Source of the DNA: an uncultured Opitutales bacterium | GTDB taxonomy: Bacteria > Verrucomicrobiota > Verrucomicrobiia > Opitutales > CAZQIE01 | Assembly: GCA_964593675.1 (NCBI GenBank) | Contig: CAZQIE010000004.1 | Span: 7,267 to 71,266 of the forward strand | Direction of reading: 5' to 3' | Length of the DNA: 64,000 nucleotides | Shown: one piece after another, positions 15,440-31,497 of the stretch | Position numbering within the stretch: position 1 is the first letter of the stretch | Layout of the letters: every line of letters starts with the position of its first letter | The notes under the pieces: generated by a model | Told to the model about the DNA's origin: nothing | The model's input: the letters and a program-made list of their open reading frames with translations, nothing else | Database searches by the model: none | Translations under genes and position numbers: made by a program

Positions 15440-16438
15440 ATGACTTCCCTCTGTGCTCTAGTCTGCGGCGGCGGCGGCTTCATCGGCGGCCACCTCGCCA
15501 AGCGCCTCCTCGACGACGGCCTCCAGGTCCGCTGCGTCGACATCAAGCCCCTCTCCGAGTGGTACCAGGTCCACCCCCGCGCCGAAAACCTCGTCCTCGA
15601 CCTCCGCCTCGCCGACGCCTGCGGCATCGCCACCTCCGGCATCGACCACGTTTACAACCTCGCCGCGGACATGGGCGGCATGGGCTTCATCGAAAACAAC
15701 AAAGCCCTCTGCATGCTCAGCGTGCTCATCAACACGCACCTCCTCATGGCCTCCCGCGAGGCCCGCGTAAAACGCTTCTTCTACGCCTCCTCCGCCTGCG
15801 TTTACGCCGCCGACAAGCAGACCACCACCGAAAACCCCGGCCTCAGGGAGTCCGACGCCTACCCCGCCATGCCCGAAGACGGCTACGGCTGGGAGAAGCT
15901 CTTCTCCGAACGCATGTGCCGCCACTTCACCGAAGACTTCGGCCTTGAGACCCGCGTCGCACGCTTCCACAACGTCTACGGCCCCTTCGGCACCTATGAC
16001 GGCGGCCGCGAAAAAGCCCCGGCCGCCATCTGCCGCAAAGTCATTTCCGCAAAACTTAATAAGCAGGACTCCATCGAGATCTGGGGCGACGGCCTCCAGA
16101 CCCGCAGCTTCATGTACATTGATGACTGCATCCGCGGCATCCTCGAGCTCATGCACAGCAACGTCCGCGAGCCCCTGAACCTCGGCAGCGCCGAAATGGT
16201 CTCCATCAACCAGCTCGTCGAGATCGTCGAAAACATCGCCCACCTCTCCCTCAAGCGCCGTTACAAGCTCGATGCCCCCAAAGGCGTGCGCGGCCGCAGC
16301 AGCGACAACACCCTTTTCCGCAGCCATTTTGGCTGGGAGCCCTCGACCACCCTCCGCGCAGGCCTCGAAAAAACCTACGCCTGGATCGAAGCGGAAATGC
16401 AGAAGGCTCACTCCCCCTTTGCGCACGCCCATGGCTAA
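15440..16438 (+). CDS. gme: GDP-mannose 3,5-epimerase-like SDR
   Basis: GGGGFIGGHL, VYNLAADMGGMGFI, RFFYASSACVY, the YGWEK catalytic Y-x3-K, FHNVYGPFGT..GGREKAPAA.CRK, WGDGLQTRSF and GVRGR.SDN are collinear with plant and bacterial GME. Confidence 0.85.
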   Translation: MTSLCALVCGGGGFIGGHLAKRLLDDGLQVRCVDIKPLSEWYQVHPRAENLVLDLRLADACGIATSGIDHVYNLAADMGGMGFIENNKALCMLSVLINTHLLMASREARVKRFFYASSACVYAADKQTTTENPGLRESDAYPAMPEDGYGWEKLFSERMCRHFTEDFGLETRVARFHNVYGPFGTYDGGREKAPAAICRKVISAKLNKQDSIEIWGDGLQTRSFMYIDDCIRGILELMHSNVREPLNLGSAEMVSINQLVEIVENIAHLSLKRRYKLDAPKGVRGRSSDNTLFRSHFGWEPSTTLRAGLEKTYAWIEAEMQKAHSPFAHAHG

Positions 16439-17786
16439 CGCCACCCCTCTCTTTCCCCAAGGCTGGTCCCCCAGCCGCCTCTCTGTCGTCGGCCTCGGCA
16501 AGCTCGGCAGTTGCATGGCCGCCGCCTTCGCCTCCCGCGGCTTCGACGTCATCGGCGTCGACGTCAACACACGCACCGTCGACCTCGTCGGCCGCGGCGA
16601 AGCCCCCGTCGTTGAGACCGGTCTCGCGGACATGCTCCGCGACAACCGCCAGCGCCTCCGCGCCACCACCTCCCATGACGAGGCCATCGACCAGACCGAC
16701 GCCACCTTCGTCATCGTACCCACCCCCAGCGACGCCAACGGCTCCTTCTCCACCCAATACGCCGCCTGGGCCTTCCAGGAACTCGGCGCCTCCCTCAGGA
16801 AAAAAGCCGGCAAGCCCCACCTCTTTGTGATGACCAGCACCGTCCTCCCCGGCGCCTGCCGCGACGTGCTCGTCCCCACCCTCGAAAAAGCCTCCGGCCT
16901 CAAGGCGGGCCGCGATTTCGGCTTCTGCTACTCCCCCGAATTCATCGCCCTCGGCAGCGTCATCCGGGACTTCCTCAACCCCGACTTCACCCTCGTCGGC
17001 GAATGGGACGCCCCCTCCGGCGCCGCCCTGGAAGCCATCTACAAACGCGTCCTCCTCAACGGCGCCCCCTGCCGCCGCATGAGCGTCGAGAACGCCGAGC
17101 TCGCCAAAGTCTCCCTCAACGCCTACGTCACCCTCAAGATCACCTTCGCCAACATGCTCGCCGAGGCCTGCGCCAAGCTCCCCGGCGGCGATGTCGACGC
17201 CGTGACCCAGGCCCTCGGGTTTGACCGCCGTATCGGCTCCCGCTACCTCCGCGGCGGCTCCAGCTTCGGCGGCCCCTGCTTCCCGCGCGACAACCGCGCC
17301 CTCGCCCATGCCCTCGGTGAGCTCGGCGTGCCTCAGGATCTCCCCCTTACCACCGACCGCCTCAACGAAACCTGGATCGACCGCACCACCGACCGCGTCG
17401 CCTTCCTCGTGCCTGCCGGCTCCACCGTCACGCTCCTCGGCCTCTCCTACAAGCCCGCGTCCCCGGTCCTCGAAGCCTCGGCCTCCCTCGCGCTCGCCGA
17501 GCGCCTCAGCTCACGCGGCTTCCGTGTCGTCGCGCACGACCCCCTCGTCCCGACCAACGCCTTCACCGGCCACCAGCGCATCGTCATGCAGTCCGACGTC
17601 CGCGCCGCCCTCCATAAGGCCAGCCTCGTCCTCGTCGCCAACCCGGACCCCGCCTACGAAGCCCTCCGCGAAGCCGACTTTGCCGACTGCGCCCCCGACG
17701 TCATCGTCTTCGACCTCTGGCGCCTCCTGCGCCCGCACCTCGCCAAGAGCACCAAGCTCCGCTACATCGCGCACGGCGTCGCCTGA
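16431..17786 (+). CDS. Nucleotide-sugar 6-dehydrogenase (UDP-glucose/GDP-mannose dehydrogenase family)
   Basis: The internal ATG at 16431 overlaps the gme stop by 8 nt. N-terminal Rossmann VVGLGKLGSCMAAAFASRGFDVIGVD, central NAELAKV..NAY, and a catalytic-cysteine region GGSSFGGPCFPRD. Confidence 0.85.
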   Translation: MANATPLFPQGWSPSRLSVVGLGKLGSCMAAAFASRGFDVIGVDVNTRTVDLVGRGEAPVVETGLADMLRDNRQRLRATTSHDEAIDQTDATFVIVPTPSDANGSFSTQYAAWAFQELGASLRKKAGKPHLFVMTSTVLPGACRDVLVPTLEKASGLKAGRDFGFCYSPEFIALGSVIRDFLNPDFTLVGEWDAPSGAALEAIYKRVLLNGAPCRRMSVENAELAKVSLNAYVTLKITFANMLAEACAKLPGGDVDAVTQALGFDRRIGSRYLRGGSSFGGPCFPRDNRALAHALGELGVPQDLPLTTDRLNETWIDRTTDRVAFLVPAGSTVTLLGLSYKPASPVLEASASLALAERLSSRGFRVVAHDPLVPTNAFTGHQRIVMQSDVRAALHKASLVLVANPDPAYEALREADFADCAPDVIVFDLWRLLRPHLAKSTKLRYIAHGVA

Positions 17787-17804: not shown

Positions 17805-18959
17805 ATGAGCAACGCCGGCACTCTCGATACCTACAACGCCGACATCCAGAAGCGCCTCGGCGCACGTTGGCCCCATAACGCCGAGGTTGCCCAAACCCGC
17901 CTCCTTACCGCCTGGGCAAGCGGCCTCGAACGCCCCGAGTCCATCGCCCTCGAAGGCGTCGCCGCCGCCGGCTTCCGCTTCCTTGAAGGCGGCCACCCCG
18001 AACTCGCCCGCCGCGTCCTCCCCCTTCTCGATTCCCCCGAGTTCGAGTTCGACCGCCGCTTCCTCGCCCACCGCTGCGGCCTCACCGACACCCTCCCGCC
18101 ACGCATCCCTTTCCTCCTCGCCACCCACGCCGGCGAAATCCCCAACCCCGATTCCATGGCCCGCCAGACCGCCGCCATGGACCGCCTTGCCGCCGTCGCC
18201 CGTGAAGACGGCGCCATCCATACCCTCAACATCCGTTACAAAGAGGAAAAGTCCGCGCACCCCGCGCTCCCCGACTCCTACCTCGAACGCTCAGGCCGCG
18301 ACCTCCTCGGCCCTGAAGTCCGCCGCCTCCCCATCATGCGCGAAGTCTTCGACCGCGCAGCCGACGCCGCCCACCGCGCAGGCCTCGAATATTTCGGGTT
18401 CATGAACGGCGACATCCTCATGCACCGCGACGCCATCGTCCTCGCGCGCATGTATATGGAACACGGCTTTGAAGCCCTCGCCTTTGTCCGAACCGACATC
18501 CCCGCACTCAGCCGAGAATCCCCCGCGGACTGGCTTGAAGTCCACCTCTCCGGCGCAGACCTCTTCATCTTCAAGACCTCCTGGTGGCGCCAGTACAACG
18601 ACCTCCTGCGCGACTACATCATGTCCTGCTACTGGTGGGACCGCGTTCTCATGGGCCTCATGGTCCTCTACGGCCGCGCCGCCTATGTCGCCCACGTCCG
18701 CGGCCTCATGTTCCACCCCGTCCACACCCGCGTTTCCACCACCCGCCCGGACGTTGCCCACAACACCAACCTCTGCATGCGCGAGGACTCCTTCTACTAC
18801 GACCTCAACTGCGCCTACATCCGACGCCTCGAAGAGTTCCTCGGCAAACAGCGCTCCCTTCCCACCTTCAAGGCCAACCAGGAACTCTACGAACCCAGCA
18901 GCCTCGTCGACTTCCGCCGGCGCCTCCGCCCAGACCTCTTCAAAACACCGGCCAAATGA
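17805..18959 (+). CDS. Hypothetical protein (possibly GT-A-like), conserved operon member
   Basis: ATG at 17805, 384 aa, normal composition. Its stop overlaps the next start (ATGA). No diagnostic motif; FGFMNGDILM and GADLFIF faintly resemble GT-A DxD and acceptor regions. Confidence 0.6.
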   Translation: MSNAGTLDTYNADIQKRLGARWPHNAEVAQTRLLTAWASGLERPESIALEGVAAAGFRFLEGGHPELARRVLPLLDSPEFEFDRRFLAHRCGLTDTLPPRIPFLLATHAGEIPNPDSMARQTAAMDRLAAVAREDGAIHTLNIRYKEEKSAHPALPDSYLERSGRDLLGPEVRRLPIMREVFDRAADAAHRAGLEYFGFMNGDILMHRDAIVLARMYMEHGFEALAFVRTDIPALSRESPADWLEVHLSGADLFIFKTSWWRQYNDLLRDYIMSCYWWDRVLMGLMVLYGRAAYVAHVRGLMFHPVHTRVSTTRPDVAHNTNLCMREDSFYYDLNCAYIRRLEEFLGKQRSLPTFKANQELYEPSSLVDFRRRLRPDLFKTPAK

Positions 18960-20587
18960 CAGACCTTGAGGAAGAGCTTTCCGGTCTTGAAGCCCTCGCC
19001 GCAGGCGCAGACACCGACCCCGCGCCCGCCGGTCTCCTTGCCCTCGCCCGCGCCTCCTGCGCCGCGGACTCCGCCTGGGCCGAGGCCTTCCTCAACCTCC
19101 TCGACACCCACCGCTCCATCGCGGTCGCCCTCCTTGTCTGGCGCCGCGCGGCCGCCTCTGGCGCCACCGCGCTCGCCGAAGCCGCCGCCTCCATCCTCTC
19201 CCGCCGCGTGCCTGACCTCCCCGAAGTCGCCGCGCTCCTCCAGCGCCGCGCTGACGACGGTTCCCGTCCGCCCCCCGTTGCCGCGCCTTTCTATCCCCTT
19301 GCTCCCCGCGCGTGGAACCCCTTTTGCGGAGACGAGTCCATCCCCCTCCGCGCCCTAGCAGGGTGGGGGGGCATCCATGCCGTTCAAACCCTCTGGGTCG
19401 TCGGTGCCCACGAGTTCCGCGAGCACGCCACCTACCGCAGGCTCTTTCCCTCCCTCCGCAACATCGTCCTCTTCGAGCCAAATCCCCGCCTCGTCGCCAG
19501 CCTCCGTGAGTCCTGCGCCCACTCCGGCGTAACCCTCGTCCCCTGCGCCCTCTCGGATCACGACGGCTCCGCTCGCCTCAAGATCAGCTCCAACGAAGGA
19601 CTCTCCAGTTCCCTTTTTGATTTCGGCCTCCACAGCCAGGCCGCGCCCGACGTCACCTTTGTCGAAGAAGTCGCAGTCTCCGTCCGCCGCGTGGATTCCG
19701 TCCTCGCGGAGCACCGCCTCCCCCTGCCGGACGTCCTCGTGATCGACGCCCAGGGCGCCGAGGACAAGATCCTCTCCGGCACCCCCGCTGCCGTACTGGA
19801 GCACGCCCGCGTCATCTACGTCGAAACCAGCAAGGCCGAAGTTTACCGCGGCGGCACCTCTTACCACGCCGTACAGCAGCGCCTCAGCCCCACCCACCGC
19901 TACGTCGCCTTCGCCTCCATCCCCGGCCACCACGGCCTCCACGGCAACTCCCTCTTTGTCCGACGCCTCGGCCGCACCGCCGCGCCCGCCCCGGTCGCCC
20001 CGGCGGACCCCTTCGCCCACGCGCTCAGCCTCGCCCGTCAAGGCCTCCTCCGCGCCGCCGCCCGCCTCTTCGACGCCTCCACCCATCCCAACGCCGCCCG
20101 CAACGTCGCCACACTCGAGGCCCTCATCGCCGCCCCCGCACTCCCGGCCACCGCAGCCCTCGTTGACGAACTCGACCAGCCCGTCCCCCTTGTCGGTGCG
20201 GAAGCCCGCCCCCTCTGGTCCCTTACCCCCGCGGACGCCGCCACGCTCCGCCTCGCCCTCACCGCCGATTTCTTCGGCGCCACCCGCCCGGACGTCTCCT
20301 CCCGCCCCCTCTACCTCTGGGGCGCCGGCGCAGGCGGACGCCGCGTCCTCGCTCTGTGCCGCGCCGTCGGCCTCAACGTCGCCGCCCTTGTTGACCGCGA
20401 CCCCGCAAAACACGGCTCCACCCTCGAAAGCCTCGCCGTCGTCTCCCCCGACGCCCTCAAAGCCGCCCAGCCGCGCCCCTTCGTCATCATCGCTTCCATG
20501 TACGCCCCCGAAATCGCCCGCCAACTGCGCGGCCTCGGTTTTGGGCAGGCGGACTTCTGCATCCCCGCACCCTTTTTCCAGCCATGA
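18956..20587 (+). CDS. FkbM-family methyltransferase fused to a C-terminal Rossmann-like module
   Basis: The true start is ATG 18956 (ATGA overlap); the upstream 124 codons of the track ORF are P/R-rich overlap. The central region LWVVGAHEF..VLFEPNP..PCALSDHDG..VIDAQGAE..IYVE is FkbM-like. The C-terminus is LYLWGAGAGGRRVLALCRAVGLNVAALVDRDPAKHG. Confidence 0.75.
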   Translation: MTDLEEELSGLEALAAGADTDPAPAGLLALARASCAADSAWAEAFLNLLDTHRSIAVALLVWRRAAASGATALAEAAASILSRRVPDLPEVAALLQRRADDGSRPPPVAAPFYPLAPRAWNPFCGDESIPLRALAGWGGIHAVQTLWVVGAHEFREHATYRRLFPSLRNIVLFEPNPRLVASLRESCAHSGVTLVPCALSDHDGSARLKISSNEGLSSSLFDFGLHSQAAPDVTFVEEVAVSVRRVDSVLAEHRLPLPDVLVIDAQGAEDKILSGTPAAVLEHARVIYVETSKAEVYRGGTSYHAVQQRLSPTHRYVAFASIPGHHGLHGNSLFVRRLGRTAAPAPVAPADPFAHALSLARQGLLRAAARLFDASTHPNAARNVATLEALIAAPALPATAALVDELDQPVPLVGAEARPLWSLTPADAATLRLALTADFFGATRPDVSSRPLYLWGAGAGGRRVLALCRAVGLNVAALVDRDPAKHGSTLESLAVVSPDALKAAQPRPFVIIASMYAPEIARQLRGLGFGQADFCIPAPFFQP

Positions 20588-21858
20588 GCCGGCTCGCCGT
20601 CATCGTTCCCAACTACAACCACGCCGAGTACCTGCCCGACGCCCTCAACGGCATCGTCTCGCAGACCCGACTCCCCGACGATGTCCTCATCGTCGACGAC
20701 TGCTCCACCGACAACAGTTGGGAAGTCATTCTCGATTGGCAGCGCCGCTTCCCCAACCTCATCCGCGCCGTCCGTAACGAAAAAAACCTCGGCGCCCTCG
20801 GGAACCAGAAACGCGGCCTCGAGCTCACCCAGAGCGACTACATCTACCTCCATTCCGCCGACGACCTCGTCGAGCCCGACTGCTTCGAAGTCTACACCCG
20901 CCTCCTTGACCAGCACCCGCAGGCTCCCCTCGTCGCCAGCCGCACCGTCGTCTTCAAGGAAAACAAAACGGACGCCGTATACGAAGCCGGCCGCTGGTGC
21001 CCCTCCGAAGGCTACCATGGCCCCGAAGAATGCGCCCGCGAGCTCCGCTCACGCTTCTTTTGCAGCGGCCAGGTCATGTACCGCCGCCACGCCCTAGATG
21101 AAGCCGGCGGCTTCCACTACGACCTCGGCAATTTCTGCGACTGGTTCTGGCTCCACTGCAACATGCTCCGTCACGGCATGTGCTTCACCCCAAGACCCGT
21201 CACTGTCTTCCGCCTCGTTGAAAGCTCCTTCTCGGCCACGCAGGACCGCGACCAACAGCGCCGCCTCAAGGCCGCACGCTACCTCCTGAACCTCCTCTCC
21301 GAACCCCGCTTCGCCGACGTCCTCCCGCGCTTCGCGGAAAGCGGCGTCATCCTCCAGCTTGGCGACGCCGTCGCCCACGCCATCCTCTCCGAGCCCCGCT
21401 GGTGGACACCCCAGATGTTCGCCCTCGCCTACGGCAACCTGCACGAGTGGGCCGAGCAAAACCGCCGCATGCGCCTCCAGGGCTTCCGCGTCTTCTCCGA
21501 GCCCACGCTCGAAGAAAAGATCGCGCCCGTCGCCATGCAGGCCATCGCCAAGTGCAACAGCCGCCGCGTCTCCAACGTCGCCTTTTACGGCGCCGGCACC
21601 CACACCAAAACCCTCATGGCCCAGTGGAAGCGCCTCGGCGGCCCCGCTCCCACCTGCATCCTCGTCTCCCGCAAGGCACCCGGACAAGACACCTTCGAAG
21701 GGCTCCCCGTCGTCTCCGCCCTCGAAGCCACCTTTGCGCCCGGCACCCTCGTCATCCTCTCCTCCATGAACTACGAGCGAGACATGGCCGCTGTCCTCCG
21801 CGCCGCGCACCCCGACGTCCCCTTCATCGCCCTCTGGGACCCCTCCCTTGGCCTCTGA
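20584..21858 (+). CDS. Family 2 glycosyltransferase with a C-terminal Rossmann-like module
   Basis: ATGA overlap at 20584. VIVPNYNHAEYLPDALNGIVSQT..DDVLIVDDCSTDNS and HSADD are GT2 motifs. The C-terminal VAFYGAGTHTKTLMAQWKRLG ... FEGLPVVS module recurs elsewhere in the locus. Confidence 0.85.
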   Translation: MSRLAVIVPNYNHAEYLPDALNGIVSQTRLPDDVLIVDDCSTDNSWEVILDWQRRFPNLIRAVRNEKNLGALGNQKRGLELTQSDYIYLHSADDLVEPDCFEVYTRLLDQHPQAPLVASRTVVFKENKTDAVYEAGRWCPSEGYHGPEECARELRSRFFCSGQVMYRRHALDEAGGFHYDLGNFCDWFWLHCNMLRHGMCFTPRPVTVFRLVESSFSATQDRDQQRRLKAARYLLNLLSEPRFADVLPRFAESGVILQLGDAVAHAILSEPRWWTPQMFALAYGNLHEWAEQNRRMRLQGFRVFSEPTLEEKIAPVAMQAIAKCNSRRVSNVAFYGAGTHTKTLMAQWKRLGGPAPTCILVSRKAPGQDTFEGLPVVSALEATFAPGTLVILSSMNYERDMAAVLRAAHPDVPFIALWDPSLGL

Positions 21859-22876
21859 AGCTCCCAGCTCCCGCCCCTACGTCAGCATCGTCGTCGTCTC
21901 CCGCAACGACGACCACGGCGGCAAACTCATGGAGCGCCTCGGCGCGTTCTGGGAAAACGTCACCCACTTCGCACCCCGCTCCGGCCTTCGCCTCGAAGTC
22001 GTCCTCGTCGAGTGGAACCCGCCCGCCGACCGCCCACCTCTCGCTGACGTCCTCCCCATTCCCGCCTTCCGCGACGGCCTTGACCTCCGCATCGTCACCG
22101 TCCCCGAAGCCGTCCACCGCCGCATCCCGCGCTATTTCAACATCCCGCTCTTCCAAATGATCGGGAAGAACGTCGGCATCCGCCGCGCCCGCGCAGACTA
22201 CGTCCTCGTCACCTGCAACGACCTCATCTTCACCGAAGCCCTCTACCACTTTCTCGCCGCGCGCGTCCTTGACCCCTCCCGCACCTACCGCCTCGACCGC
22301 TTCGACCTCCCCGTGCGCGAGCTCCCTCCCCTCGGCCCCCAAGGCCGCCTCGATTTTTGCGCCACCCAAACCTGCACCGTCTGCGGCGCCCGTGACCGTG
22401 AGGGCATAACCGCCATCACCTTTGACGGCCCCCGCCACGCCTTTCTCCGTGCCGACCCCCAAGCCCTGCGCCGCTTCGCCAACGCCGGCCTCGGCTACCC
22501 CCTTCACACCAACGCCTGCGGCGACTTCACCCTCATGGCCCGCGACGCCTGGTTCGCCCTCCGCGGCCATAACGAGCTTCCCCTCGGCGACGTCTACGTT
22601 GACGGCCTCGTGAACTTCGCCGCCGCCGCCCTCGGCCTCAGGCAGGTCTACCTCGGCGACCCCGTCCGCGCCTACCACATCGCCCACGGCCTCAACTGCA
22701 CCATCGACATCGAGCAGCGCCGCCGCCACCGGCCCTCCCTCAACTACGCCCTCGACTACGTCCCCTGGTGCGAAGCCATCCTCCGCAACAGCGCCCCCAT
22801 GAACGTCAATAACGACGACTGGGGCCTCGCCTACGAAGACCTCCCCGAAACCTGGCTCTGCCGCGCAGGCAGGTAG
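21848..22876 (+). CDS. GT2-like glycosyltransferase
   Basis: TTG start at 21848, an 11-nt overlap; no in-frame ATG precedes the conserved YVSIVVVSRNDDHGG region. VTCNDLIF is a DxD-like motif. Confidence 0.65.
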   Translation: MASEAPSSRPYVSIVVVSRNDDHGGKLMERLGAFWENVTHFAPRSGLRLEVVLVEWNPPADRPPLADVLPIPAFRDGLDLRIVTVPEAVHRRIPRYFNIPLFQMIGKNVGIRRARADYVLVTCNDLIFTEALYHFLAARVLDPSRTYRLDRFDLPVRELPPLGPQGRLDFCATQTCTVCGARDREGITAITFDGPRHAFLRADPQALRRFANAGLGYPLHTNACGDFTLMARDAWFALRGHNELPLGDVYVDGLVNFAAAALGLRQVYLGDPVRAYHIAHGLNCTIDIEQRRRHRPSLNYALDYVPWCEAILRNSAPMNVNNDDWGLAYEDLPETWLCRAGR

Positions 22877-22964: not shown

Positions 22965-23822
22965 ATGAGCCGTTACACAAAGGAAGAGAAACTCGCCGCC
23001 ATCTCAAAGCACACCTGGTACCACAGGATCGACCTCGGCGACGGCGTCGTCACCCCCGGCCACGATTGGGAGCACCTCTGGAATATGATCCGCGCCGTGC
23101 GCTCCAAAGTTTCCTACGCGGAACGCGCCGTCCTTGATGTTGGCAGTTGGGACGGCCTCTGGGCCTTCGAAGCCGAAAAACTCGGCGCCCGCTACGTCGT
23201 CGCCACCGACTGCGCTCCCGCTCACCCTCTCGAAAACACGTGCGTCGACGCCAAAATGCCTCACGCCCTCGAGAAGTTTCTCCTGCTGCGCGAAATCCTC
23301 GGCAGTAAAGTCATCCCCTTCTACAACGCCTCCCCCTACAACCTCACCCAGCGCCTTGATTCCCTCATCTTCCTCAAGGCGAATTGCGAACACCTCAAGT
23401 TCGACATCGTTCAGCACTTCGGCGTCCTCTACCACCTCCGCAACCCCCTCCATTCCCTCTCGGAAGCCCGCAACGTCCTCAAAGACAACGGCACCCTCAT
23501 CCTTGAGACAGCCTGCCTCCTCAACGAGCCCCGTTCCGTCATGCTCTTCAACGGCGCCGGCGAGCCCAGCACGCTACGCTTCTATAAAGGCCGCACAAAC
23601 TGGTGGGCCCCCTCTTGGCTCTGTCTGAAAGAGATGCTCCAAACCTGCTTCCTCGAACCCCTCGAAGATACCGCCGAATTCCTTACCGTCGCCGGCTATG
23701 GCGACGTCGGCCGCGTGGCCGTGGCGTGCAGGGCCATCCCGGTAACTGAAGGCGATGCCAGGCTCCGCGCAGAAATGGCCCACTATTTCCGCAACCCCGA
23801 CCACATCCCGTATTTCGCCTAG
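22965..23822 (+). CDS. Class I SAM-dependent methyltransferase (CmoB/DUF1698-like), copy 1
   Basis: WYHRIDLGDGVVTPG, motif I VLDVGSWDGLWAFEAEKLGA, and FDIVQHFGVLYHLRNPL. The stop TAG at 23820-23822 is formed at the junction with the MITE-like element. Confidence 0.8.
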   Translation: MSRYTKEEKLAAISKHTWYHRIDLGDGVVTPGHDWEHLWNMIRAVRSKVSYAERAVLDVGSWDGLWAFEAEKLGARYVVATDCAPAHPLENTCVDAKMPHALEKFLLLREILGSKVIPFYNASPYNLTQRLDSLIFLKANCEHLKFDIVQHFGVLYHLRNPLHSLSEARNVLKDNGTLILETACLLNEPRSVMLFNGAGEPSTLRFYKGRTNWWAPSWLCLKEMLQTCFLEPLEDTAEFLTVAGYGDVGRVAVACRAIPVTEGDARLRAEMAHYFRNPDHIPYFA

Positions 23823-24134
23823 AGCGTATTCAGTTCAAGTTGTCGCGCCTGTTGGACATCCCTCCTTCATCCGCGCCGACGTGAGGAAGGGGCGTCCCCA
23901 CTGCCAAGGGCCGCATTCCGAGCCGTGCAGATGAACGAATCGGCCCACGCCGTGCGCCCAGCACCCGTGTCTTAGCGGAGCGGCAGATATGCCCGTGCAG
24001 CCCACCAGAATCGGCCCACGCCGTGCGCCCAGCACCCGTGTCTTAGCGGAGCGGCAGACTCGCCCGTGCAGCCCACCAGAATCGGCCCACGCCGTGCGTG
24101 GCGGCGCACGCGACAACCTGAAACCAAACTGCTC
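23822..24134. mobile_element. MITE-like palindromic element (copy 1, 313 bp) with TA flanks and internal tandem repeats
   Basis: Left end gagcgtattcagTTCAAGTTGTCGCG. The reverse complement of the right end is gagcagtttggtTTCAGGTTGTCGCG. TA lies at 23820-21 and 24135-36. The element fills the whole gap between two convergent genes. Confidence 0.6.
23922..24105 (+). repeat. Tandem repeat, about 70-bp unit x 2.7, containing three perfect ATCGGCCCACGCCGTGCG cores
   Basis: The unit gcccgtgcagcccaccagaatcggcccacgccgtgcgcccagcacccgtgtcttagcggagcggcaga starts near 23922, 23991 and 24062. The whole unit is conserved, so there are no unique spacers. Confidence 0.85.
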
Positions 24135-25468
24135 TATTTCTTCACCGCAAGGAAGCGCAGGAACATCCCCGCCACCTCTGTGCAGGCGTCGTCCGAGATG
24201 ACTGTCACCTCGAAGCCGCGCCGCGTGAAGAACGCCATCAGGCTTTCGGGCTCGAAGAAATGCCCCACCGAGGCAATACCTGCCGTGTTGTTGATTGTCT
24301 CGTGATAAGGCTTTGTCCGGTACGTCCCCTTCTCGTCGCTCATTTCCTCATACGGGTATGACGGCAGCGTCTCACTCGCGCAGAACCCCCCGATGTAGAT
24401 CCGGTCCGAAAGCGTCGTCAGGTTCTCAAGCAACAGCAGCGGGTGAGGGGAGTGGTAGTATGAACCATGGCAAACGACCAGGTCATACCGCCCGTACCGC
24501 CTCGCATCAGCATTGAGGAAGTCGTCCGTGAAAACACGCACATGATCCCAGCCCATCGCGTTGCACAACGTCGACGTCTTCAGCACGTTTTCCGCACGCC
24601 CTTCGACGCAGTCCAACTGTGCCACGCCGGCGCGCACAAGCGCCGCCGTCTGGTAGCCCTCCCACGGACCAAATTCGAGCACCCGCAAGCCCTTCAGCGG
24701 CACCAGCGCGTCCACGCGGTCCGTCATCCCCCATTCCCGCCCGCTCGCATACAGGCCCAGCAGTTCCTCCAATGTCTTCGCCCGATACGTGAAGTGCTGC
24801 CACAAATGCGCGATCTGCGCAAAAGGCCACAGCACCTGATGCAGTGAAACCATCCGGCACGGCAACTCCTTCGCCAGTTCCGAGACCTGCGACCATTCCC
24901 CGTTGTTCACCGGGTGGCGCGCAAGCACCGCAAGCTCCGACTTCCCAAAACCCGCCGGCGCGAAATCACCGAACGCCCAATCCACCACCCGCACCCGGGC
25001 GTCCTTTGCCCCCGCTGCCGCCAAGCCTTCGCGGATCGCCCGCGCTTCGCCCAGCAGCCAGATCACCTTCGCCTTCTCCTTCTTCAACCGCTCCAGCACC
25101 AGCGTCCAGCAGTGCTGTGAGTTCTCAATCGTCCGCACCGCCGCAGCGTCCCGGTCCAACGCCCATAGCGCCGCCGACTGTATCTTCCATTTCGATATAC
25201 CAAGCTCATTTACAAGCTGGTTCCGGATCGCCTCCTCCGCCTGCGAAGCAATGAGAATCGTTTCGCAATCCAGCGTCTTCAACTCCACCGGAGAGATCAC
25301 AGGCTTCCCGCAGACCACCGTCCCGTGCTTCGCCGCGTCATTGTCCGCAAAACAGCAAATATCGAAAACCTGCGACAAACCCTCAAATGACGCCTGCCCT
25401 GCTACGCCTGCACCAAAAACGACCGCCTTCACGCGGTTGCCAAATGTCCTCCGGGAACCGTTCTGCAT
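24134..25468 (-). CDS. Three-part protein: N-terminal Rossmann-like module, unknown middle region, C-terminal class I methyltransferase
   Basis: The internal ATG at 25468 gives MQNGS..KAVVFGAGVAGQASFEGL..FADNDAAKHGTVVCGKPV. The C-terminus has LRVLEFGPWEGYQTAAL and DLVVCHGSYYHSPHPL. The stop TAG is the complement of 24134-24136, at the MITE edge. Confidence 0.7.
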   Translation of the reverse strand: MQNGSRRTFGNRVKAVVFGAGVAGQASFEGLSQVFDICCFADNDAAKHGTVVCGKPVISPVELKTLDCETILIASQAEEAIRNQLVNELGISKWKIQSAALWALDRDAAAVRTIENSQHCWTLVLERLKKEKAKVIWLLGEARAIREGLAAAGAKDARVRVVDWAFGDFAPAGFGKSELAVLARHPVNNGEWSQVSELAKELPCRMVSLHQVLWPFAQIAHLWQHFTYRAKTLEELLGLYASGREWGMTDRVDALVPLKGLRVLEFGPWEGYQTAALVRAGVAQLDCVEGRAENVLKTSTLCNAMGWDHVRVFTDDFLNADARRYGRYDLVVCHGSYYHSPHPLLLLENLTTLSDRIYIGGFCASETLPSYPYEEMSDEKGTYRTKPYHETINNTAGIASVGHFFEPESLMAFFTRRGFEVTVISDDACTEVAGMFLRFLAVKK

Positions 25469-25660
25469 GGGAAATGGGGGAATTCTGGATCCGACCTTAT
25501 TGCCGGCATCCGCTCTCTCCCACTGGACCCCGAAACGCCCCCTCCCGTCAAACCTTATAGCGCGTCCCCAATCAGGCTTGCGGGCATTTCGCGCCAGCCT
25601 TTTCCTCAATCCATCCACACGCGCGCGCACCGCGTCCCCTCAACTTCCCCCTCCCAAATC

Positions 25661-26518
25661 ATGAGCCGTTACACCAAGGAAGAGAAAATCGCCGCCATCT
25701 CCAAATACGCATGGTACCACCGCATCGACCTTGGCGACGGCGTCGTCACTCCCGGCAACGAGTGGGAACACCTCTGGAACATGATCCGCGCCGTCCGCTC
25801 GAAAATCGCCTATGAGCAACGCGCCGTTCTCGACATCGGCAGCTGGGACGGCCTCTGGGCCTTCGAAGCCGAAAAGCTCGGCGCCCGCTACGTTGTCGCC
25901 ACCGACTGCGCACCCGCCTACCCGTTCGAGAATACGGGCGTCGACTGGCAGCACGCCCTCGAGAAATTCCTTCTCCTGCGCGACATCCTTGGCAGCAAAG
26001 CCATCCCCTTCTACAACGCCTCCCCCTACAACCTCACCCAGCGCCTCGACTCCCTCATTTTCCGCAAGACCGGCTGCGAGCACCTGAAGTTCGATATTGT
26101 CCAGCACCTCGGCGTCCTCTACCACCTCCGCAACCCCCTGCACGCGCTTTCCGAGGCCCGCAACGTCCTCAAAGACAACGGCACCCTCCTCGTCGAGACC
26201 GCCTGCATCCTCGACGAGCCCCGCTCCGTCATGCTCTTCAACGGCGCCGGAGATCCCAAAACCTTCCGCATCTGTGCGGACCGCAGCACCTGGTGGGCGC
26301 CCTCCTGGCCCTGCCTCAAGGAGATGCTCCAGACATCCTTCTTCGAGCCCCTTGAAGACACCGTCCAATTCCTCCCGCTGAAAGGTCAGCCCCAAGACAA
26401 CATCGGCCGCGTTGCCGTCGCCTGCCGGGCCGTTCCCGTCGACAAGGGCGACCCCGCCCTTCGCGCCGAAATGGCCCATTACTTCCGCAATCCCGACCAC
26501 ATTCCCTTCTTCGGCTAA
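25661..26518 (+). CDS. Class I SAM-dependent methyltransferase (CmoB/DUF1698-like), copy 2
   Basis: 285 aa, the same length as 22965-23822 and roughly four-fifths identical by eye along the full length. The stop TAA at 26516-18 again abuts a MITE-like element. Confidence 0.8.
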   Translation: MSRYTKEEKIAAISKYAWYHRIDLGDGVVTPGNEWEHLWNMIRAVRSKIAYEQRAVLDIGSWDGLWAFEAEKLGARYVVATDCAPAYPFENTGVDWQHALEKFLLLRDILGSKAIPFYNASPYNLTQRLDSLIFRKTGCEHLKFDIVQHLGVLYHLRNPLHALSEARNVLKDNGTLLVETACILDEPRSVMLFNGAGDPKTFRICADRSTWWAPSWPCLKEMLQTSFFEPLEDTVQFLPLKGQPQDNIGRVAVACRAVPVDKGDPALRAEMAHYFRNPDHIPFFG

Positions 26519-26725: not shown

Positions 26726-26763
26726 GGGGCGTATCCGGTTCACGGATACGCCCCTTTCTCTTT
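26726..26763 (+). terminator. Perfect 12-bp hairpin plus T-rich tail
   Basis: ggggcgtatccg gttca cggatacgcccc followed by tttctcttt. It lies between convergent genes and directly abuts the stop of the minus-strand gene at 26762, so it may act in both directions. Confidence 0.6.
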
Positions 26764-28222
26764 ACGAAAACGTAAGGCGCCGCGCCCCGGGGAACAGCCG
26801 GGCCATTGTCCGCCGCACGTCTTTCTCATTGTGCGTCCGCGGCACCAGGATCAGCGAAGGGCTCATGCCGCTCGCCGCGGCCTCGCTCGCCTCGCGCACC
26901 GGAACGCCTTCCAGCTCCGCCACCCCGGTCCGTTTGATCGTCAGCAAATACGCGGGCTTGGGCAGCCCCAGTTCCCTGAGCGCATCCAGAAGTTCCAGCG
27001 TATGCGCGTCAGCCCCGCAGGCAGCCAGCCCAGCGCCCGCCTCAGCGATCCTCCGCCGCACGCCCGGGTCTGCCAGATTCTTGCGTAGCCGCGCCGCCCC
27101 TTCCTCCGGCCAAAACGTTACCTGCGACGCCTCCGGGAACAGCAACTTCGCCGCCACGCACATCTGCGTGGCATACAGCCTCGACGAAATCAGCACCAGC
27201 CCCGGCTTCTCCACCGCACCCGCAGCTGCCTCCGACGCCTTCAGCACCCGCAGCCCCTCGAACTCAGCCTCCTTTGGCGTATCCGTTGTAAGGATGTACG
27301 CTGGCCGCGGCATTGAGGCCTCCTCCAATGCCCTCAAAAGCTCCTGCGTATGCCCGCCGGCTCCGTACACCGCCAGCGGCCCCTTTGCCCGCATCACGCG
27401 AATCCTGAACTCCGGCGACGCCACCACAGTCCGCACCTGCGTCAGGATCTCGTTCCCTCCCGGCGCCGTCTTTACCCACATCGGCCGGTACACACCTTGC
27501 ATGACCGGTTTCCCGAACGTGGCGTTCGGGCGCTTCTCGGCAACGCACACAATCGCGTACATGTCGTTGCCCTGACCCGCCCGCCCATACGAAATACCGT
27601 CCATCGCCCCCGGATAGTAATCCGCGTACCACGCCGGATCGCTCGCATGGTTCTCCGTGTACCGGAACACCTGCATCGTCGGCACCCCGTACCCATTCGC
27701 GCTGTAATAGTCCCAATACATCGTCGGGCACATCATGTACATCCCGTGGTCGATGTGGTTGCTCGACGGCGTCAGATGCATGATCCGGCCCCCTGGCGCC
27801 GTCAGGTGGTGCAGACACGCCAGCGCGTTCGGTACGTTGAAAATGTGCTCCAGCGTCCCCCCGTCGTAGATCAGGTCAAATGCCCCGCGCCAGGCCTGTG
27901 GCGGCTCCGGGTCATTTAAGTCGTGGATGATCTCCGGTTCCTCATACGCCGAGTAATCCATGGCCAGCACCGCGTCGAACCCGAGCGCCTGGAACAGCGT
28001 CCGCTGGGAAATGTAACCCTTCGCGCCCAGCTCCACGCTCTGCGACAGCTCATACTCGGCCTCGGCCATCCGCAGCGGATACCCATATATGGCAGCCAAC
28101 GTCTCCACCTCCTCGCGCGTTGCATACACAAACTGGTGCCCCAGCGTGAGCACCTTCCCCTGGAAAGGCCGCCTCAGCCCTTCCTTCATCAATACCGCGA
28201 TATCTTTGCGTGCGATGCCCAT
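26762..28222 (-). CDS. Methyltransferase-like N-terminal domain fused to two tandem Rossmann-like modules
   Basis: The N-terminus has FDLIYDGGTLEHIFN..LTAPGGRIMHLTP (class I MTase motifs post-I to III; motif I is atypical, VLTLGHQ). The C-terminus has LAVYGAGGHTQELLRALEE..FEGLRVL and LAACGADAHTLELLDALRE..LEGVPV. Confidence 0.7.
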   Translation of the reverse strand: MGIARKDIAVLMKEGLRRPFQGKVLTLGHQFVYATREEVETLAAIYGYPLRMAEAEYELSQSVELGAKGYISQRTLFQALGFDAVLAMDYSAYEEPEIIHDLNDPEPPQAWRGAFDLIYDGGTLEHIFNVPNALACLHHLTAPGGRIMHLTPSSNHIDHGMYMMCPTMYWDYYSANGYGVPTMQVFRYTENHASDPAWYADYYPGAMDGISYGRAGQGNDMYAIVCVAEKRPNATFGKPVMQGVYRPMWVKTAPGGNEILTQVRTVVASPEFRIRVMRAKGPLAVYGAGGHTQELLRALEEASMPRPAYILTTDTPKEAEFEGLRVLKASEAAAGAVEKPGLVLISSRLYATQMCVAAKLLFPEASQVTFWPEEGAARLRKNLADPGVRRRIAEAGAGLAACGADAHTLELLDALRELGLPKPAYLLTIKRTGVAELEGVPVREASEAAASGMSPSLILVPRTHNEKDVRRTMARLFPGARRLTFS

Positions 28223-28246: not shown

Positions 28247-29233
28247 TTATTTCTGTTTTCCCAGGCACTCGAACCACTGCGCCGTGGCCTGTGCGATCGA
28301 CTGCGGGTCCCACAGCGGCGCATCCTTCCAGTCGTCGATCCGCTCCAACATACGCTGCACACCCGCCTCCAGCGGCACCCGAGGCTCCCACCTCAGCGCC
28401 TTCCGGATCGCCGAAATGTCCGCAAACGTGCAATCCGGCTCCCCGGGCCGCTTCGGCAAGTGCGTCACCGGCCCACCCAGCAGCTCCACAAGCCGGTTCA
28501 CCGCATACGTGTGCCCCGACCCGACATTCAGCCGCACCCCCGTGACGTCCGATTCCGCCGCGGCCACAAACGCCTCCGCCACGTCCGTCACAAACGTAAA
28601 GTCCCGCGTCTGTTTCCCGTCGCCCACAACCGTGTAAGGCTTGTTCGCCAGCTTTTGGCGCAGGAACACCCCGAACACCGCGCCGTAGGCGCCTGTCGTG
28701 CGGCTCCGCGGCCCATAAACGTTGAACAGGCACAACGACAGCGCCGGAACCCCGTAAACCTTGTTCCAGTGGAACACCAGTTGCTCGCCCAGATACTTCG
28801 TCAACGCATACGGGTGCTCCGGTTTCGCCGGCGCCGACTCCGGCGTCGGGTACACGTCCGGAATCCCATAGCACGTCGAACTCGCCGTATATACAAAGCG
28901 CTTCACGCCCACCTGTCGCGCCACCTGCAGCACGCGCAGCGTCCCCTCTGCGTTCACCGAAAAATAATCCTCCGGCTTCTCAATCGACGGCACCAAGTCC
29001 GCACGCCCCGCCAGGTGGAAGAACCATTCCGCCCCCTCCACATCCGCGGCTTCCAGCGCCTGCACCGGCTTCTGCACCAGCCGGAACCCCGCCTTCTCCC
29101 GCGCCAGCGCAAGGTTCCCCGGCCTTCCCGTCGAGAAATCATCCACCCCCACCACGCTGTGCCCACGCGCCAGCAGGAGATCCGTCAGGTGACTGCCAAT
29201 AAACCCGGCCGCGCCGGTGACCACGCATTTCAT
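28247..29233 (-). CDS. NAD-dependent sugar epimerase/dehydratase (extended SDR)
   Basis: VTGAAGFIGSHL, ASSTCYG, and catalytic YALTK. 328 aa. Confidence 0.85.
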   Translation of the reverse strand: MKCVVTGAAGFIGSHLTDLLLARGHSVVGVDDFSTGRPGNLALAREKAGFRLVQKPVQALEAADVEGAEWFFHLAGRADLVPSIEKPEDYFSVNAEGTLRVLQVARQVGVKRFVYTASSTCYGIPDVYPTPESAPAKPEHPYALTKYLGEQLVFHWNKVYGVPALSLCLFNVYGPRSRTTGAYGAVFGVFLRQKLANKPYTVVGDGKQTRDFTFVTDVAEAFVAAAESDVTGVRLNVGSGHTYAVNRLVELLGGPVTHLPKRPGEPDCTFADISAIRKALRWEPRVPLEAGVQRMLERIDDWKDAPLWDPQSIAQATAQWFECLGKQK

Positions 29234-29344: not shown

Positions 29345-30913
29345 CTAGAACGTCAGCATTGCCATCCCGCTCTTCAACAGGCGGGCCTTCTTGATGCAGT
29401 CGCGGTTACCCACAATGCACACCGCCTGCGCCCCGGCAAGCTGGCTGTTGAACGTCGCCAGATCCAGCGGCAAGCCCGCCGCCGCCGACAACGACCCCAC
29501 CGCGCAGAACGCATCACCCGCGCCGATCGTGTCCACCGCCGTTGACTCGAACGGCGGAACCCGGCACGGCGGCTCATCCCCGTTAAGACCTATCGTCTCC
29601 ACCTCGCCCAGCGTCAGCCACGCATACTTCGCCCCAAGGTAGTCCTTCAACCGCGCCAGTTCCTCCGCGTGGTTGAACTCCTTGCGCCCGCAAGCCAGCG
29701 TCAGCTCCGTGCGGTCCAAGCTGAACGTGTCCGCCCGGTTCCACCGCCGGTTGATGATGTTGAAACCGTAATTGTTGCTGTTCGTCTGGCAATTCAGGGA
29801 AAGGAACCGCGACTTCTCCTCCAGCAGCAGCCGCACCGGGTCCTGATGCACCCCGTGCCCGAAGTCCATCGCGATCACCAGATCGTAATCCCCGATCACC
29901 GACTCCAGCCGCGACCGCATCCGTTCCACCATCTCCGGGCTCGGGTGTGTCGCGTCGATATAGTTTACCGAGAAAAGCTTGTTCATCTCGCGGCCCGTTT
30001 TCACAGGCTCCACGAACCGCTGCTTCACGATCGTCGTCACGTCCTCGCGCTGCACCAGATCGCTCTCCGTAGGCAGGTGCTCCCGCAGCAGCCCCTCCAC
30101 CCAAGGCTCCTTCCCCACATAAGCCATCAGGTGCGCGTGCGGCGTGAACTCCCTCACATGGCGGAAGACAGCCAGCGCGCCGCCAGCCTGCATCTCGTCC
30201 GCCACAAACCGCCCCGACAACATCCGGTTCTTCGACGTCAGCCCTTGCACCGACACCGTCGTATACCGGTCAAAAATGATATCCCCGACCACCAGCACCT
30301 TCAGCTTCGCCAGCCCATCCACCAGCTCGCGGAACCGCTGCGGCGTGAACCGCTGCGCCACGCGCCGGCAAAAGTCCTTCACGCTCGAAGGCACCGGATC
30401 AAAATGGTTGTTAAGGATGCGCGTGGAGCTGAACACCACGCTCCCCACGTAGCGCATCTCGCCCCCCAGCCGCTCCACCGTCAGCACGTCGTCGCGGATG
30501 TTTCCCGTCACATCCGTGCCCTCGTCCATGTATTCCCGCCCCTTGCAGTACACATGCGGGCACACGCACTCGATCGCCTCCACCGCCGCCGGGAACGGGA
30601 TCACCACCACAAAGTCCACACACGCCAGCGCGCTCAGCGCCTTCACCCGAAGCGCATTGTTAAAATACGGACGCCCCGGACCCTTGTTCACCATCCGCTC
30701 ATCCGTGATCGTCACCACCAGCACGTCCCCGTGCTCCCGTGCTTCCTCAAAATGGATGATGTGACCCGGGTGTACCAAGTCGAACGTGCCGTGGCATTGC
30801 ACGATCCGTTTCCCCTGCTCGCGCAGCGCGCGGAAAAACCCCGGCGCCTCCCCGAACGGCACTTCCTTTGCCGCCGTCCCCTTGCCATCAAAATCACGTT
30901 TTACCTGGAGCAT
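29345..30913 (-). CDS. Bifunctional sugar-phosphate nucleotidyltransferase (N-terminal) / PfkB-family sugar kinase (C-terminal), HldE-like with reversed domain order
   Basis: The N-terminal CHGTFDLVHPGHIIHFEEA is a cytidylyltransferase-fold HxGH motif. The C-terminal DTIGAGDAFCA is the PfkB signature. It overlaps the gmhA stop by 13 nt. Confidence 0.8.
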   Translation of the reverse strand: MLQVKRDFDGKGTAAKEVPFGEAPGFFRALREQGKRIVQCHGTFDLVHPGHIIHFEEAREHGDVLVVTITDERMVNKGPGRPYFNNALRVKALSALACVDFVVVIPFPAAVEAIECVCPHVYCKGREYMDEGTDVTGNIRDDVLTVERLGGEMRYVGSVVFSSTRILNNHFDPVPSSVKDFCRRVAQRFTPQRFRELVDGLAKLKVLVVGDIIFDRYTTVSVQGLTSKNRMLSGRFVADEMQAGGALAVFRHVREFTPHAHLMAYVGKEPWVEGLLREHLPTESDLVQREDVTTIVKQRFVEPVKTGREMNKLFSVNYIDATHPSPEMVERMRSRLESVIGDYDLVIAMDFGHGVHQDPVRLLLEEKSRFLSLNCQTNSNNYGFNIINRRWNRADTFSLDRTELTLACGRKEFNHAEELARLKDYLGAKYAWLTLGEVETIGLNGDEPPCRVPPFESTAVDTIGAGDAFCAVGSLSAAAGLPLDLATFNSQLAGAQAVCIVGNRDCIKKARLLKSGMAMLTF

Positions 30914-31497
30914 TGCGCCACCCTCTCTTTCAAGATGCGGGTCACCATATGCCCCACAACAATTTGCAAGTCCTCAGAAATCTGCATGTCGTCCACCGCG
31001 AAGTGCAGGGCGATATCCACCATCCCCTTGCACACCCCGCCGCTGAACCCCAAAATCCCCGCCGTCTCGAGCCCAAGCTCCTGCGCCACCTTCAGCGCCT
31101 CCACCACATTCGGCGAGTTCCCGCTACCCGACATCACCACCAGCAGGTCGCCACGCTTCCCCTGCACCCGTAGCTGGTTCGAAAAAATCTTCTCATAGCC
31201 CGTGTCGTTCCCCAAGCACGTCAGCACCGACACATTCCCCACCAGCGCGTGCGCCCTCAGGCCCTTTCCCGGCGACGGTGCCACCCCATACAAAAGGTCC
31301 ACCGCAAGATGCGCCGCATTCGCCGCGCTTCCGCCGTTGCCGCACAAAAACACCGTCGCACCGCGCTCCCATACCCCATACAACGCGTCCGCAAGCCGCT
31401 CCACGCCCGACCAGTCCGCGTCCTTCAACACAGACCCAAACCGCGAAATATACGCCTGGACGATCTCGCAACCGACGCTCTGGACAGTGGCAGCCAT
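30901..31497 (-). CDS. gmhA: Phosphoheptose isomerase (SIS domain)
   Basis: The internal ATG at 31497 gives a 198-aa protein with FLCGNGGSAANAAHLAVDL and VMSGSGNSPNV SIS motifs. The upstream 76 codons of the track ORF are G/R-rich and lie in repeat DNA. Confidence 0.85.
   Translation of the reverse strand: MAATVQSVGCEIVQAYISRFGSVLKDADWSGVERLADALYGVWERGATVFLCGNGGSAANAAHLAVDLLYGVAPSPGKGLRAHALVGNVSVLTCLGNDTGYEKIFSNQLRVQGKRGDLLVVMSGSGNSPNVVEALKVAQELGLETAGILGFSGGVCKGMVDIALHFAVDDMQISEDLQIVVGHMVTRILKERVAQCSR

Follow-up and report, generated by a model that had tools for sequence, protein, structure and literature searches.

A gene for GDP-mannose 3,5-epimerase that overlaps the gene of an unnamed nucleotide-sugar 6-dehydrogenase clade in an Opitutales surface-glycan operon: a possible nucleotide-level route to L-hexuronates

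The window, that is, the whole stretch of 64,000 nucleotides from an uncultured Opitutales bacterium analysed in this work, carries at 15440-17786 two genes of the forward strand, the first encoding a GDP-mannose 3,5-epimerase (GME, also named GM35E) and the second a nucleotide-sugar 6-dehydrogenase (here DH). A sequence-only reading had proposed that this pair might make an L-hexuronic acid while the sugar is still bound to its nucleotide, an interpretation that is partly supported by the results presented here. The genetic configuration of the pair is as follows:

15440..16438, + strand: GME, 332 aa, assigned from its matches to plant GME structures and from its residues
16431..16438, + strand: overlap of the GME and DH genes, 8 nt, ATGGCTAA, read from the sequence itself
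16431..17786, + strand: DH, a 451-aa nucleotide-sugar 6-dehydrogenase from an uncharacterised clade, assigned from Pfam, TIGR03026, clade motifs and the fold of an AlphaFold2 (AF2) model

The initiation codon of DH (ATG, 16431-16433) is located inside the end of the GME gene, whose stop codon TAA occupies 16436-16438, such that the overlap is exactly 8 nt, as had been described. The mechanically defined open reading frame (ORF) of DH opens at 16272; position 16431 is the sensible start because no further in-frame start separates it from the Rossmann strand, which is RLSVVGLGKLG at residues 16-26, and because the homologues of DH begin a few residues ahead of the GLGKLG motif.

By its family, the first protein is predicted to be an ordinary, bona fide GME and not a 4-epimerase, in agreement with the plant-type assignment made before. 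The motifs on which that assignment was based are all found in the sequence (YGWEK at 149-153, GGREKAPAA at 188-196 and WGDGLQTRSF at 215-224), as is GGPCFPRD in the second protein. The best relatives in the PDB are plant GDP-mannose 3,5-epimerases (8sg0, E 3.8e-102; 2c59, E 7.8e-100), with 50% identity over 316 aa to plant GME, and the next family, UDP-glucuronate decarboxylase, reaches just 1e-28. Bacterial homologues belong to a very large family and are 70-77% identical to the window protein across many phyla. The residues that define GM35E are, in Arabidopsis (At) numbering, Ser143/Tyr174/Lys178, Cys145/Lys217, Arg306, Arg243 and Asn203 (PMC8787198); Cys145 and Lys217 form the acid-base pair, Arg306 acidifies the cysteine, Arg243 contacts the diphosphate, and the lysine at 217, instead of histidine, separates GM35E from GDP-fucose synthase (PMC8787198). 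All eight are present in the window protein: S118, C120, Y149, K153, N178, K192, R222 and R286 correspond to At S143, C145, Y174, K178, N203, K217, R243 and R306, with C120 inscribed in SSAC and K192 in GGREK. In addition, the NAD-binding GxxGxxG/A motif is present as GGGGFIGG at 10-17, with G10, G12, G13 and G16 invariant in alignment A1.

The eight residues are invariant in 97 bacterial GMEs, a set in which 12 of the enzymes linked to DH are deep and 9 canonical, and a further 76 are unlinked. Within this aligned set, no systematic substitution sets the linked enzymes apart from the unlinked ones, nor is there any sign of adaptation to a uronate substrate. The epimerase thus appears unspecialised and therefore fits a GME that acts first on GDP-mannose. 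At 73% identity to the window GME, a close relative takes part elsewhere in another tightly coupled partnership: in L169:8001-10926 and L170:1462-4387 the GME stop overlaps a second extended short-chain dehydrogenase/reductase (SDR), which is followed by a methyltransferase.

The second protein has the three domains of its family (PF03721, 8e-40; PF00984, 8e-23; PF03720, 1e-14) and scores 313 bits on TIGR03026, for which the cut-off is 189.8. It falls far under every equivalog cut-off, with 246.6 against 670 for AglM, 154.6 against 700 for TuaD and 62.7 against 757 for PRK15057. The catalytic residues that are invariant in the family (Thr118, Glu141, Lys204, Asn208, Cys260, Asp264 and Lys320 in Streptococcus pyogenes numbering; PMC4794789) are all held by DH as T137, E170, K226, N230, C283, D287 and K341, with the catalytic cysteine in the GGPCFPRD motif at 280-287. 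The clade of DH was sampled in 80 metagenomic loci found by means of the clade motifs, with residue counts made over 89 loci and neighborhood clustering over 91; E170, K226, N230, C283, D287 and K341 are invariant in the 89 members, and T137 is invariant in alignments A2 and A3. DH is therefore predicted to be a catalytically intact nucleotide-sugar 6-dehydrogenase, which bears out the earlier assignment of family and catalytic region.

The best hit proved to be a poor guide to which sugar DH oxidises. The top single-sequence match in the PDB is AlgD (217 bits, 37% identity), followed by the UDP-glucose dehydrogenase (UGD) of Pyrobaculum (35%); however, a profile of the clade scored AlgD (304 bits), 3vtf (299) and 3gg2 (284) nearly equal, so that an assignment as GDP-mannose dehydrogenase (GMD) or as UGD on this basis was rejected. 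AlgD is a domain-swapped dimer. Given this, the Foldseek ranking, in which UGDs come first and AlgD has a template-modelling score (TM) of 0.54, was likewise set aside as uninformative about specificity. The AF2 model of DH (pLDDT 88; TM 0.86-0.87 to UGD structures) is confident overall but drops below a pLDDT of 50 at residues 172-174, in the deviant PEFIALG active-site loop.

What distinguishes the clade is a signature of five motifs, GLGKLG, PEFIALGS, GGPCFPRD, YKPxSxVxE and DxWR, invariant in the 89 loci. A neighbor-joining tree separates the clade, as a monophyletic group, from AlgD, 3vtf and 3gg2, and it lies about equidistant from AlgD and the prokaryotic UGDs; its named members are mostly proteins with generic names from metagenome-assembled genomes (MAGs) of Acidobacteriota. 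When group-specific positions were mapped after Freas et al. (PMC4794789), four residues conserved across the family were seen to be replaced around the pyrophosphate of NAD+ and the diphosphate of the substrate: Tyr10 to Lys24, Glu145 to Leu174, Asp/Asn325 to Val346 and Arg327 to Glu348. They are invariant or nearly so in the 89 members (Lys24 in 88, Glu348 in 84), whereas AlgD, 3vtf and 3gg2 keep the canonical residues, the tyrosine and the arginine included. Across the family, Tyr10, which has been implicated in thioester hydrolysis, is 98% conserved, and Arg327, which makes a salt bridge to the NAD+ pyrophosphate, 99% (PMC4794789). The remodelled residues may reflect a changed substrate geometry. 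DH thus appears to be neither a GDP-mannose dehydrogenase of the AlgD type nor an orthodox UDP-glucose dehydrogenase, and to represent a large, widespread and unnamed clade; the phylogenetic placement called for by the sequence-only reading found no firm clustering with UDP-glucose or UDP-ManNAc dehydrogenases.

The positions expected to touch the sugar were compared with those of both groups. The markers of GMD are absent from DH, since His217 is replaced by Val233, Arg122 by Thr135, Ala263 by Ser278 and Cys213 by Leu229. In AlgD, His217 contacts the 2''-OH of mannose and is described as the key contact; at this position 83 of the 89 clade members have Val and 5 have Ile, and at that of Ala263, 73 have Gly. 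One AlgD-group marker, Leu126, is kept as Leu139 in STVLPG, where other groups have Pro. Because the AlgD markers are missing, it is unlikely, to judge from these positions, that DH oxidises GDP-mannose itself. Among the UGD-group markers, Leu211 (index 359) lines C2'' and Arg244 (index 393) binds sugar hydroxyls (PMC4794789). Index 359 is Val233 in DH, aliphatic like the Leu of UGD although not identical; index 393, Lys in AlgD, is Arg267 in DH and Arg in 89/89 clade members, and its counterpart in human UGDH, Arg260, binds O2 and O3 of the glucosyl group. A third UGD marker, Lys116 (index 215), is absent, with Thr135 in its place. We infer that L-galactose, like glucose but unlike mannose, would suit an arginine that binds a trans-diequatorial 2,3-diol.

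We then asked how often GME and DH occur together. A true GME with all catalytic residues was found in 26/80 DH loci, and in 10/21 where at least 5 kb was available on both sides. Eleven pairs lie within 300 nt of each other, one pair overlaps, and both gene orders were seen. The pair occurs in an Oscillatoriales cyanobacterium and an Actinomycetota MAG (in both with DH directly upstream of GME), in an alphaproteobacterial MAG and in an Opitutaceae MAG. The GMEs next to DH are polyphyletic in the GME tree, and the DHs linked to GME are spread across the whole DH tree. On the other side, 80 GME loci of reference genomes were examined over ±8 kb, and only 4 carried a DH of the clade, while 7 carried unrelated dehydrogenases. 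The co-occurrence that the sequence-only reading had asked to be tested was therefore found from the DH side, in 33-50% of loci, often with the genes adjacent, in either order and in several phyla, but from the GME side in 4/80; the link is strong seen from DH and weak seen from GME. Fusions of the Rosetta-stone kind between DH and GME or a methyltransferase were not found, the long ORFs being upstream read-through artefacts. A motif search of the DH loci revealed no GDP- or UDP-sugar pyrophosphorylase gene within 8 kb; one fusion of a nucleotidyltransferase (NTP-transferase) with a HAD domain, of the heptose type, is present in L147. An identical 466-aa DH, P0073, occurs in two quite different contexts, the chromosome of 'Leptolyngbya sp. 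7M' without GME (L003, CP070897.1) and a Logan contig of SRR24079484 with the order Wza-Wzc-GME-methyltransferase-DH (L004), which may represent a chimeric assembly or a recent transfer.

Unbiased clustering of the ORFs around DH gave as top families the SDR epimerases, a class I S-adenosylmethionine (SAM) methyltransferase of ~283 aa and the family of the window gene at 21848-22876. The methyltransferase is the commonest immediate upstream neighbor of DH (32/91 loci, e.g., L002:9162-10004 and L004:9165-9998) and is often placed between GME and DH, overlapping the DH start; the window has none. In 7 loci without GME, DH directly adjoins a different SDR, here SDR-X:

L106:121-1140, SDR-X
L128:237-1298, SDR-X
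L131:165-1220, SDR-X
L134:394-1488, SDR-X
L135:4528-5631, SDR-X
L151:11366-12388, SDR-X
L153:7203-8303, SDR-X

SDR-X has the motifs ASSGCVYPN, YGWAK, GVENHAV and NRVADN, is ~30% identical to GME, and in the PDB is about as close to GalE (139 bits) as to GME (131). It keeps Ser-x-Cys, aligns a His to Lys217, thus having a Cys/His pair as in GDP-fucose synthase, and aligns an Arg to Arg306, so that by its sequence it carries the residues expected of a 3,5-epimerase of the GDP-fucose-synthase type. One further DH locus has an Fcl-like SDR. Altogether an epimerase-type SDR is present in 34/80 DH loci, compared with 4 that have any other extended SDR, and the fraction among well-flanked loci is 47-58%. 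The exchange of GME, SDR-X and the Fcl-like enzyme beside the same clade looks like non-orthologous displacement, a classical sign of functional coupling.

In the window, GME and DH open a seven-gene operon chained by overlaps, for a methylated surface glycan of the lipopolysaccharide (LPS) or exopolysaccharide (EPS) type. The genes around the pair are the following:

13776-15008: FabV, preceding the + strand run that GME opens
17805..18959, + strand: 384-aa protein (unk384) with no Pfam or NCBIfam match
18956..20587, + strand: FkbM-family methyltransferase (PF05050, 2.6e-13; TIGR01444, 69.6 bits)
20584..21858, + strand: GT2 glycosyltransferase, 424 aa (PF00535, 1e-27)
21848..22876, + strand: putative glycosyltransferase of GT-A fold, from a family without a model (AF2 and Foldseek)
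22965..23822, + strand: MT285a, a class I SAM methyltransferase that closes the + strand run (Pfam methyltransferase domains)
24134..25630, - strand: protein with a NeuD-like N-terminal region and a methyltransferase domain (PF13489, 8.4e-7; TIGR03570 weak)
25661..26518, + strand: methyltransferase MT285b, paralogue of MT285a (Pfam; 80% identity to MT285a)
26762..28222, - strand: methyltransferase-domain protein, 486 aa (PF13489, 6.5e-7)
28247..29233, - strand: extended SDR epimerase/dehydratase (GalE-, LegB- or heptose-epimerase-like), not GME (PF01370, 2.7e-52)
29345..30913, - strand: HldE-like bifunctional heptose kinase/nucleotidyltransferase (PF01467 and PF00294)
30901..31725, - strand: SIS-domain protein, GmhA-like sedoheptulose-7-phosphate isomerase (PF13580, 8.6e-23)

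The nature of the glycan is deduced from these genes and from what accompanies clade DHs at other loci, where exporters (Wza/Wzc or Wzm/Wzt) stand alongside heptose genes and numerous methyltransferases. Beyond the operon, convergent minus-strand genes encode the two further methyltransferase-domain proteins, the SDR, HldE and GmhA, and the surface glycan probably contains heptose too. The SDR at 28247-29233 is 28% identical to the window GME, and its NCBIfam matches are all under their cut-offs. Promoter, terminator and Rfam scans of the operon gave no signal, the sole Rfam match being a tRNA at 40204-40288. Gene unk384 has a 35%-identical homologue in the same place after DH at L001:3776-4915; by hhalign it has no profile relation to the family of 21848-22876 (probability 0.1%). 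Neither Pfam nor NCBIfam has a model for that latter family, whose >2500 homologues are all hypothetical, with none named; the window member, as modelled by AF2 (pLDDT 89), matches the GT-A enzymes K4CP and ppGalNAc-T2 in Foldseek (E 5e-8, TM 0.44-0.49), and homologues lie near clade DHs in 14 to about 20 loci, often directly downstream.

Other features of the window were noted along the way. MT285a and MT285b are + strand paralogues on either side of the minus-strand gene at 24134-25630. Upstream of FabV, the minus strand at 10344-13495 encodes a GH88-like protein, whose C-terminal match is weak (5e-15), together with a 571-aa protein that overlaps it and has no family match; a GH88-like protein is found near a clade DH in L005 as well. 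The GC skew of the + strand is -0.17 to -0.32 (strongly C-rich) from 1 to ~36 kb, irrespective of gene orientation; it then switches sign, lying between +0.08 and +0.23 at 36-46 kb, and is ~0 past 48 kb. A DnaA-box scan made for the switch showed no enrichment; the switch may be due to a rearrangement or an assembly join, or may be a landmark of replication.

From these elements we propose, with a confidence somewhat short of an even chance, that both enzymes serve one pathway, from GDP-mannose through GDP-L-galactose or GDP-L-gulose to a GDP-L-hexuronate. GME, whose membership of its family is clear, would act on GDP-mannose as the first step. DH would then oxidise C6 of the GDP-L-hexose with two NAD+ to GDP-L-galacturonate, the favoured product, or to GDP-L-guluronate, and the downstream GT2 and GT-A transferases would install the L-hexuronate in a glycan that the methyltransferases would decorate. 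If the two enzymes do work in series, epimerisation before oxidation is the likelier order because the linked GMEs are unsubstituted and DH lacks the mannose markers. The equilibrium of GME lies on the GDP-mannose side, and an irreversible dehydrogenase step would pull this unfavourable equilibrium forward. The dehydrogenase reaction is irreversible (PMC10740432). It is conceivable in the same tentative measure that the whole GLGKLG/PEFIALGS/GGPCFPRD clade consists of GDP-L-hexose 6-dehydrogenases, whose L-hexose substrate would first be formed at the nucleotide level by either GME or the Cys/His SDR-X.

Several observations weigh against this sequential pathway. A search of a library of papers revealed none on GDP-L-galacturonate, GDP-L-guluronate or a GDP-L-galactose dehydrogenase, the GDP-L-hexose route has no known biochemical precedent, and an enzyme made for alpha-D-hexoses would have to bind a beta-L-hexose in a substantially different way. 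The sparse occurrence of DH around GME mentioned above tells in the same sense, as does its absence around the three closest relatives of the window GME that were looked up. In L001, the cluster most closely related to that of DH, no GME lies within 2.4 kb upstream or 8 kb downstream; epimerase-type SDRs are missing from about 45% of the DH loci with good flanks, and one DH subclade has none within 10 kb. The overlap of the two genes carries little weight since the whole operon is chained by overlaps, with ATGA at 18956-18959 between unk384 and the FkbM gene, 4 nt between the FkbM and GT2 genes and 11 nt between GT2 and the next gene; it is a general feature of the operon and not peculiar to the pair. 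Finally, the top NCBIfam equivalog-type match of DH is AglM, its top fold match is 3vtf, the UDP-glucose dehydrogenase of Pyrobaculum (TM 0.87), and its predicted contacts with sugar O2 and O3 are UGD-like (Arg267 and Val233; at index 406 most clade members have Gly).

The latter points lead to an explanation that is nearly as likely as the sequential pathway, namely, that the two enzymes supply precursors in parallel: DH would be a divergent 6-dehydrogenase of UDP-glucose, or of a similar alpha-D-gluco UDP-sugar, making UDP-glucuronate, while GME would separately make GDP-L-galactose or GDP-L-gulose, and the genes would travel together because both sugars enter the same glycan. Precursor genes of different sugars are often adjacent in polysaccharide clusters. 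Besides the UGD-like contacts and the fold and equivalog matches, the motif before the catalytic cysteine, YLxGxxGYGGPCFPRD, is closer to UGDs than to AlgD; about half of the DH loci have no epimerase nearby, 95% of the GME loci have no clade DH, and overlaps are general in the operon. However, orthodox UGDs almost never lose Tyr10 or Arg327, given their 98-99% conservation, and the clade lies far under the UGD equivalog cut-offs. Moreover, the SDR neighbors comprise 34 of 3,5-epimerase type and 4 of the UDP-glucuronate consumers or 4-epimerases that a UGD would lead one to expect, and the partners that replace each other beside the same DH clade come from three SDR lineages.

The reverse order, in which DH makes GDP-D-mannuronate from GDP-mannose and a GME-type enzyme then epimerises C5 (and C3) of this product, yielding either GDP-L-guluronate or GDP-L-galacturonate, appears improbable, although the sequence-only reading had offered it as a variant. 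It draws on AlgD as the top PDB sequence match and on GMD-like markers in the N-terminal domain of DH (Leu at index 219, Gly at index 112 and Leu at index 90), and for the relation of D-manno to L-galacto/L-gulo among uronic acids a precedent with UDP-sugars has reportedly been proposed in the WbmF/G/H system of the Bordetella O-antigen; 2pzj, a structure of the WbmF type, is a distant PDB match of the window GME. Nevertheless, DH lacks His217, the key contact with mannose O2, as well as Arg122 and Ala263, its Arg267 and Val233 are UGD-like, and the lack of substitutions in the DH-linked GMEs suggests no adaptation to a carboxylate. The 4-keto-hexuronate intermediate would also be a beta-keto acid prone to decarboxylation. 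Least likely of all is that DH acts on another nucleotide sugar of the cluster (such as a methylated hexose or other NDP-hexose) or has lost the four-electron chemistry, the SDR linkage being shared cluster membership only: the ~283-aa methyltransferase so often found upstream of DH, the replacement of Tyr10, implicated in thioester hydrolysis, and the poorly modelled loop 172-174 would fit it, but Cys283, Lys226, Asn230, Asp287 and Glu170 of the covalent mechanism are invariant and that methyltransferase family is not beside DH in the window.

Should the sequential pathway hold, it would represent a widespread, undescribed nucleotide-level route to L-hexuronates in the surface glycans of soil and freshwater bacteria among the Acidobacteriota, Verrucomicrobiota, Cyanobacteriota and Actinomycetota. 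L-hexuronic acids, among them the L-guluronate of alginate, are known to be formed on the polymer; to have them as soluble nucleotide-activated donors would be new biochemistry and also a practical tool for the enzymatic synthesis of glycans containing L-uronates. The pair lies within known enzyme families, yet the DH clade is worth characterising whatever its substrate: hundreds of proteins automatically named 'UDP-glucose 6-dehydrogenase' form a clade in which two residues regarded as near-universal and mechanistically important in the family are replaced, and the replaced Tyr10 and Arg327 bear on how thioester hydrolysis and NAD+ binding work. The finding likewise offers a first way into the surface glycans of Acidobacteriota and Verrucomicrobiota, which are heavily methylated and unstudied.

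Among the systems already described, the plant enzyme AtGME (2c59) and the characterised bacterial GM35E of Methylacidiphilum fumariolicum, MfGM35E (PMC6678494), share with the window GME the length class, GxxGxxG, the triad, the Cys/Lys pair and the equivalents of Arg306, Arg243 and Asn203. Nothing at the level of sequence separates them from it, but the genomic setting differs: the neighbors of the MfGM35E gene are a glycosyltransferase and a phosphatidylglycerophosphate synthase, and the available part of its description mentions no dehydrogenase partner. AlgD (1mfz/1mv8) has the family and the catalytic residues in common with DH and supplies a GDP-activated uronate; unlike DH, it keeps Tyr10, Glu161 and the TDDxR motif, and the two differ at His217 (Val in DH), Arg122 (Thr), Ala263 (Ser, and Gly in the clade) and the Lys at index 393 (Arg). 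In the alginate system the L-guluronate is made on the polymer by C5 epimerisation by AlgG, and not on the nucleotide sugar (PMC10740432). The UGDs, such as 3vtf of Pyrobaculum islandicum, AglM of Haloferax and BceC of Burkholderia (2y0c), resemble DH in fold (TM 0.86-0.87), in the Arg at the sugar O2/O3 contact, in the aliphatic residue at index 359 and in a similar loop before the catalytic Cys. They differ from it in that DH has Lys for Tyr10, Thr for Lys116, Leu for Glu145, Val for Asp325, Glu for Arg327 and DxWR for DGRN, and in that its clade is associated with GME-type SDRs, as UGDs are not known to be.

The former statement that no activated-sugar route to L-uronates is established has to be softened. 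For WbmF/G/H of Bordetella, the formation of an L-configured acetamido-uronic acid (L-GalNAc3NAcA) at the UDP level is said to have been proposed, EC 5.1.3.12 is a UDP-glucuronate 5'-epimerase, and GDP-guluronate was reportedly described from Fucus in the 1960s. The UDP-level routes share with the pair in the window the idea of joining an SDR epimerase and a 6-dehydrogenase so that the L-hexuronate is formed on the nucleotide sugar; however, they mostly concern 2,3-diacetamido sugars and begin with the oxidation, whereas here the epimerase belongs to the enzymes of GDP-mannose and epimerisation is favoured as the first step.

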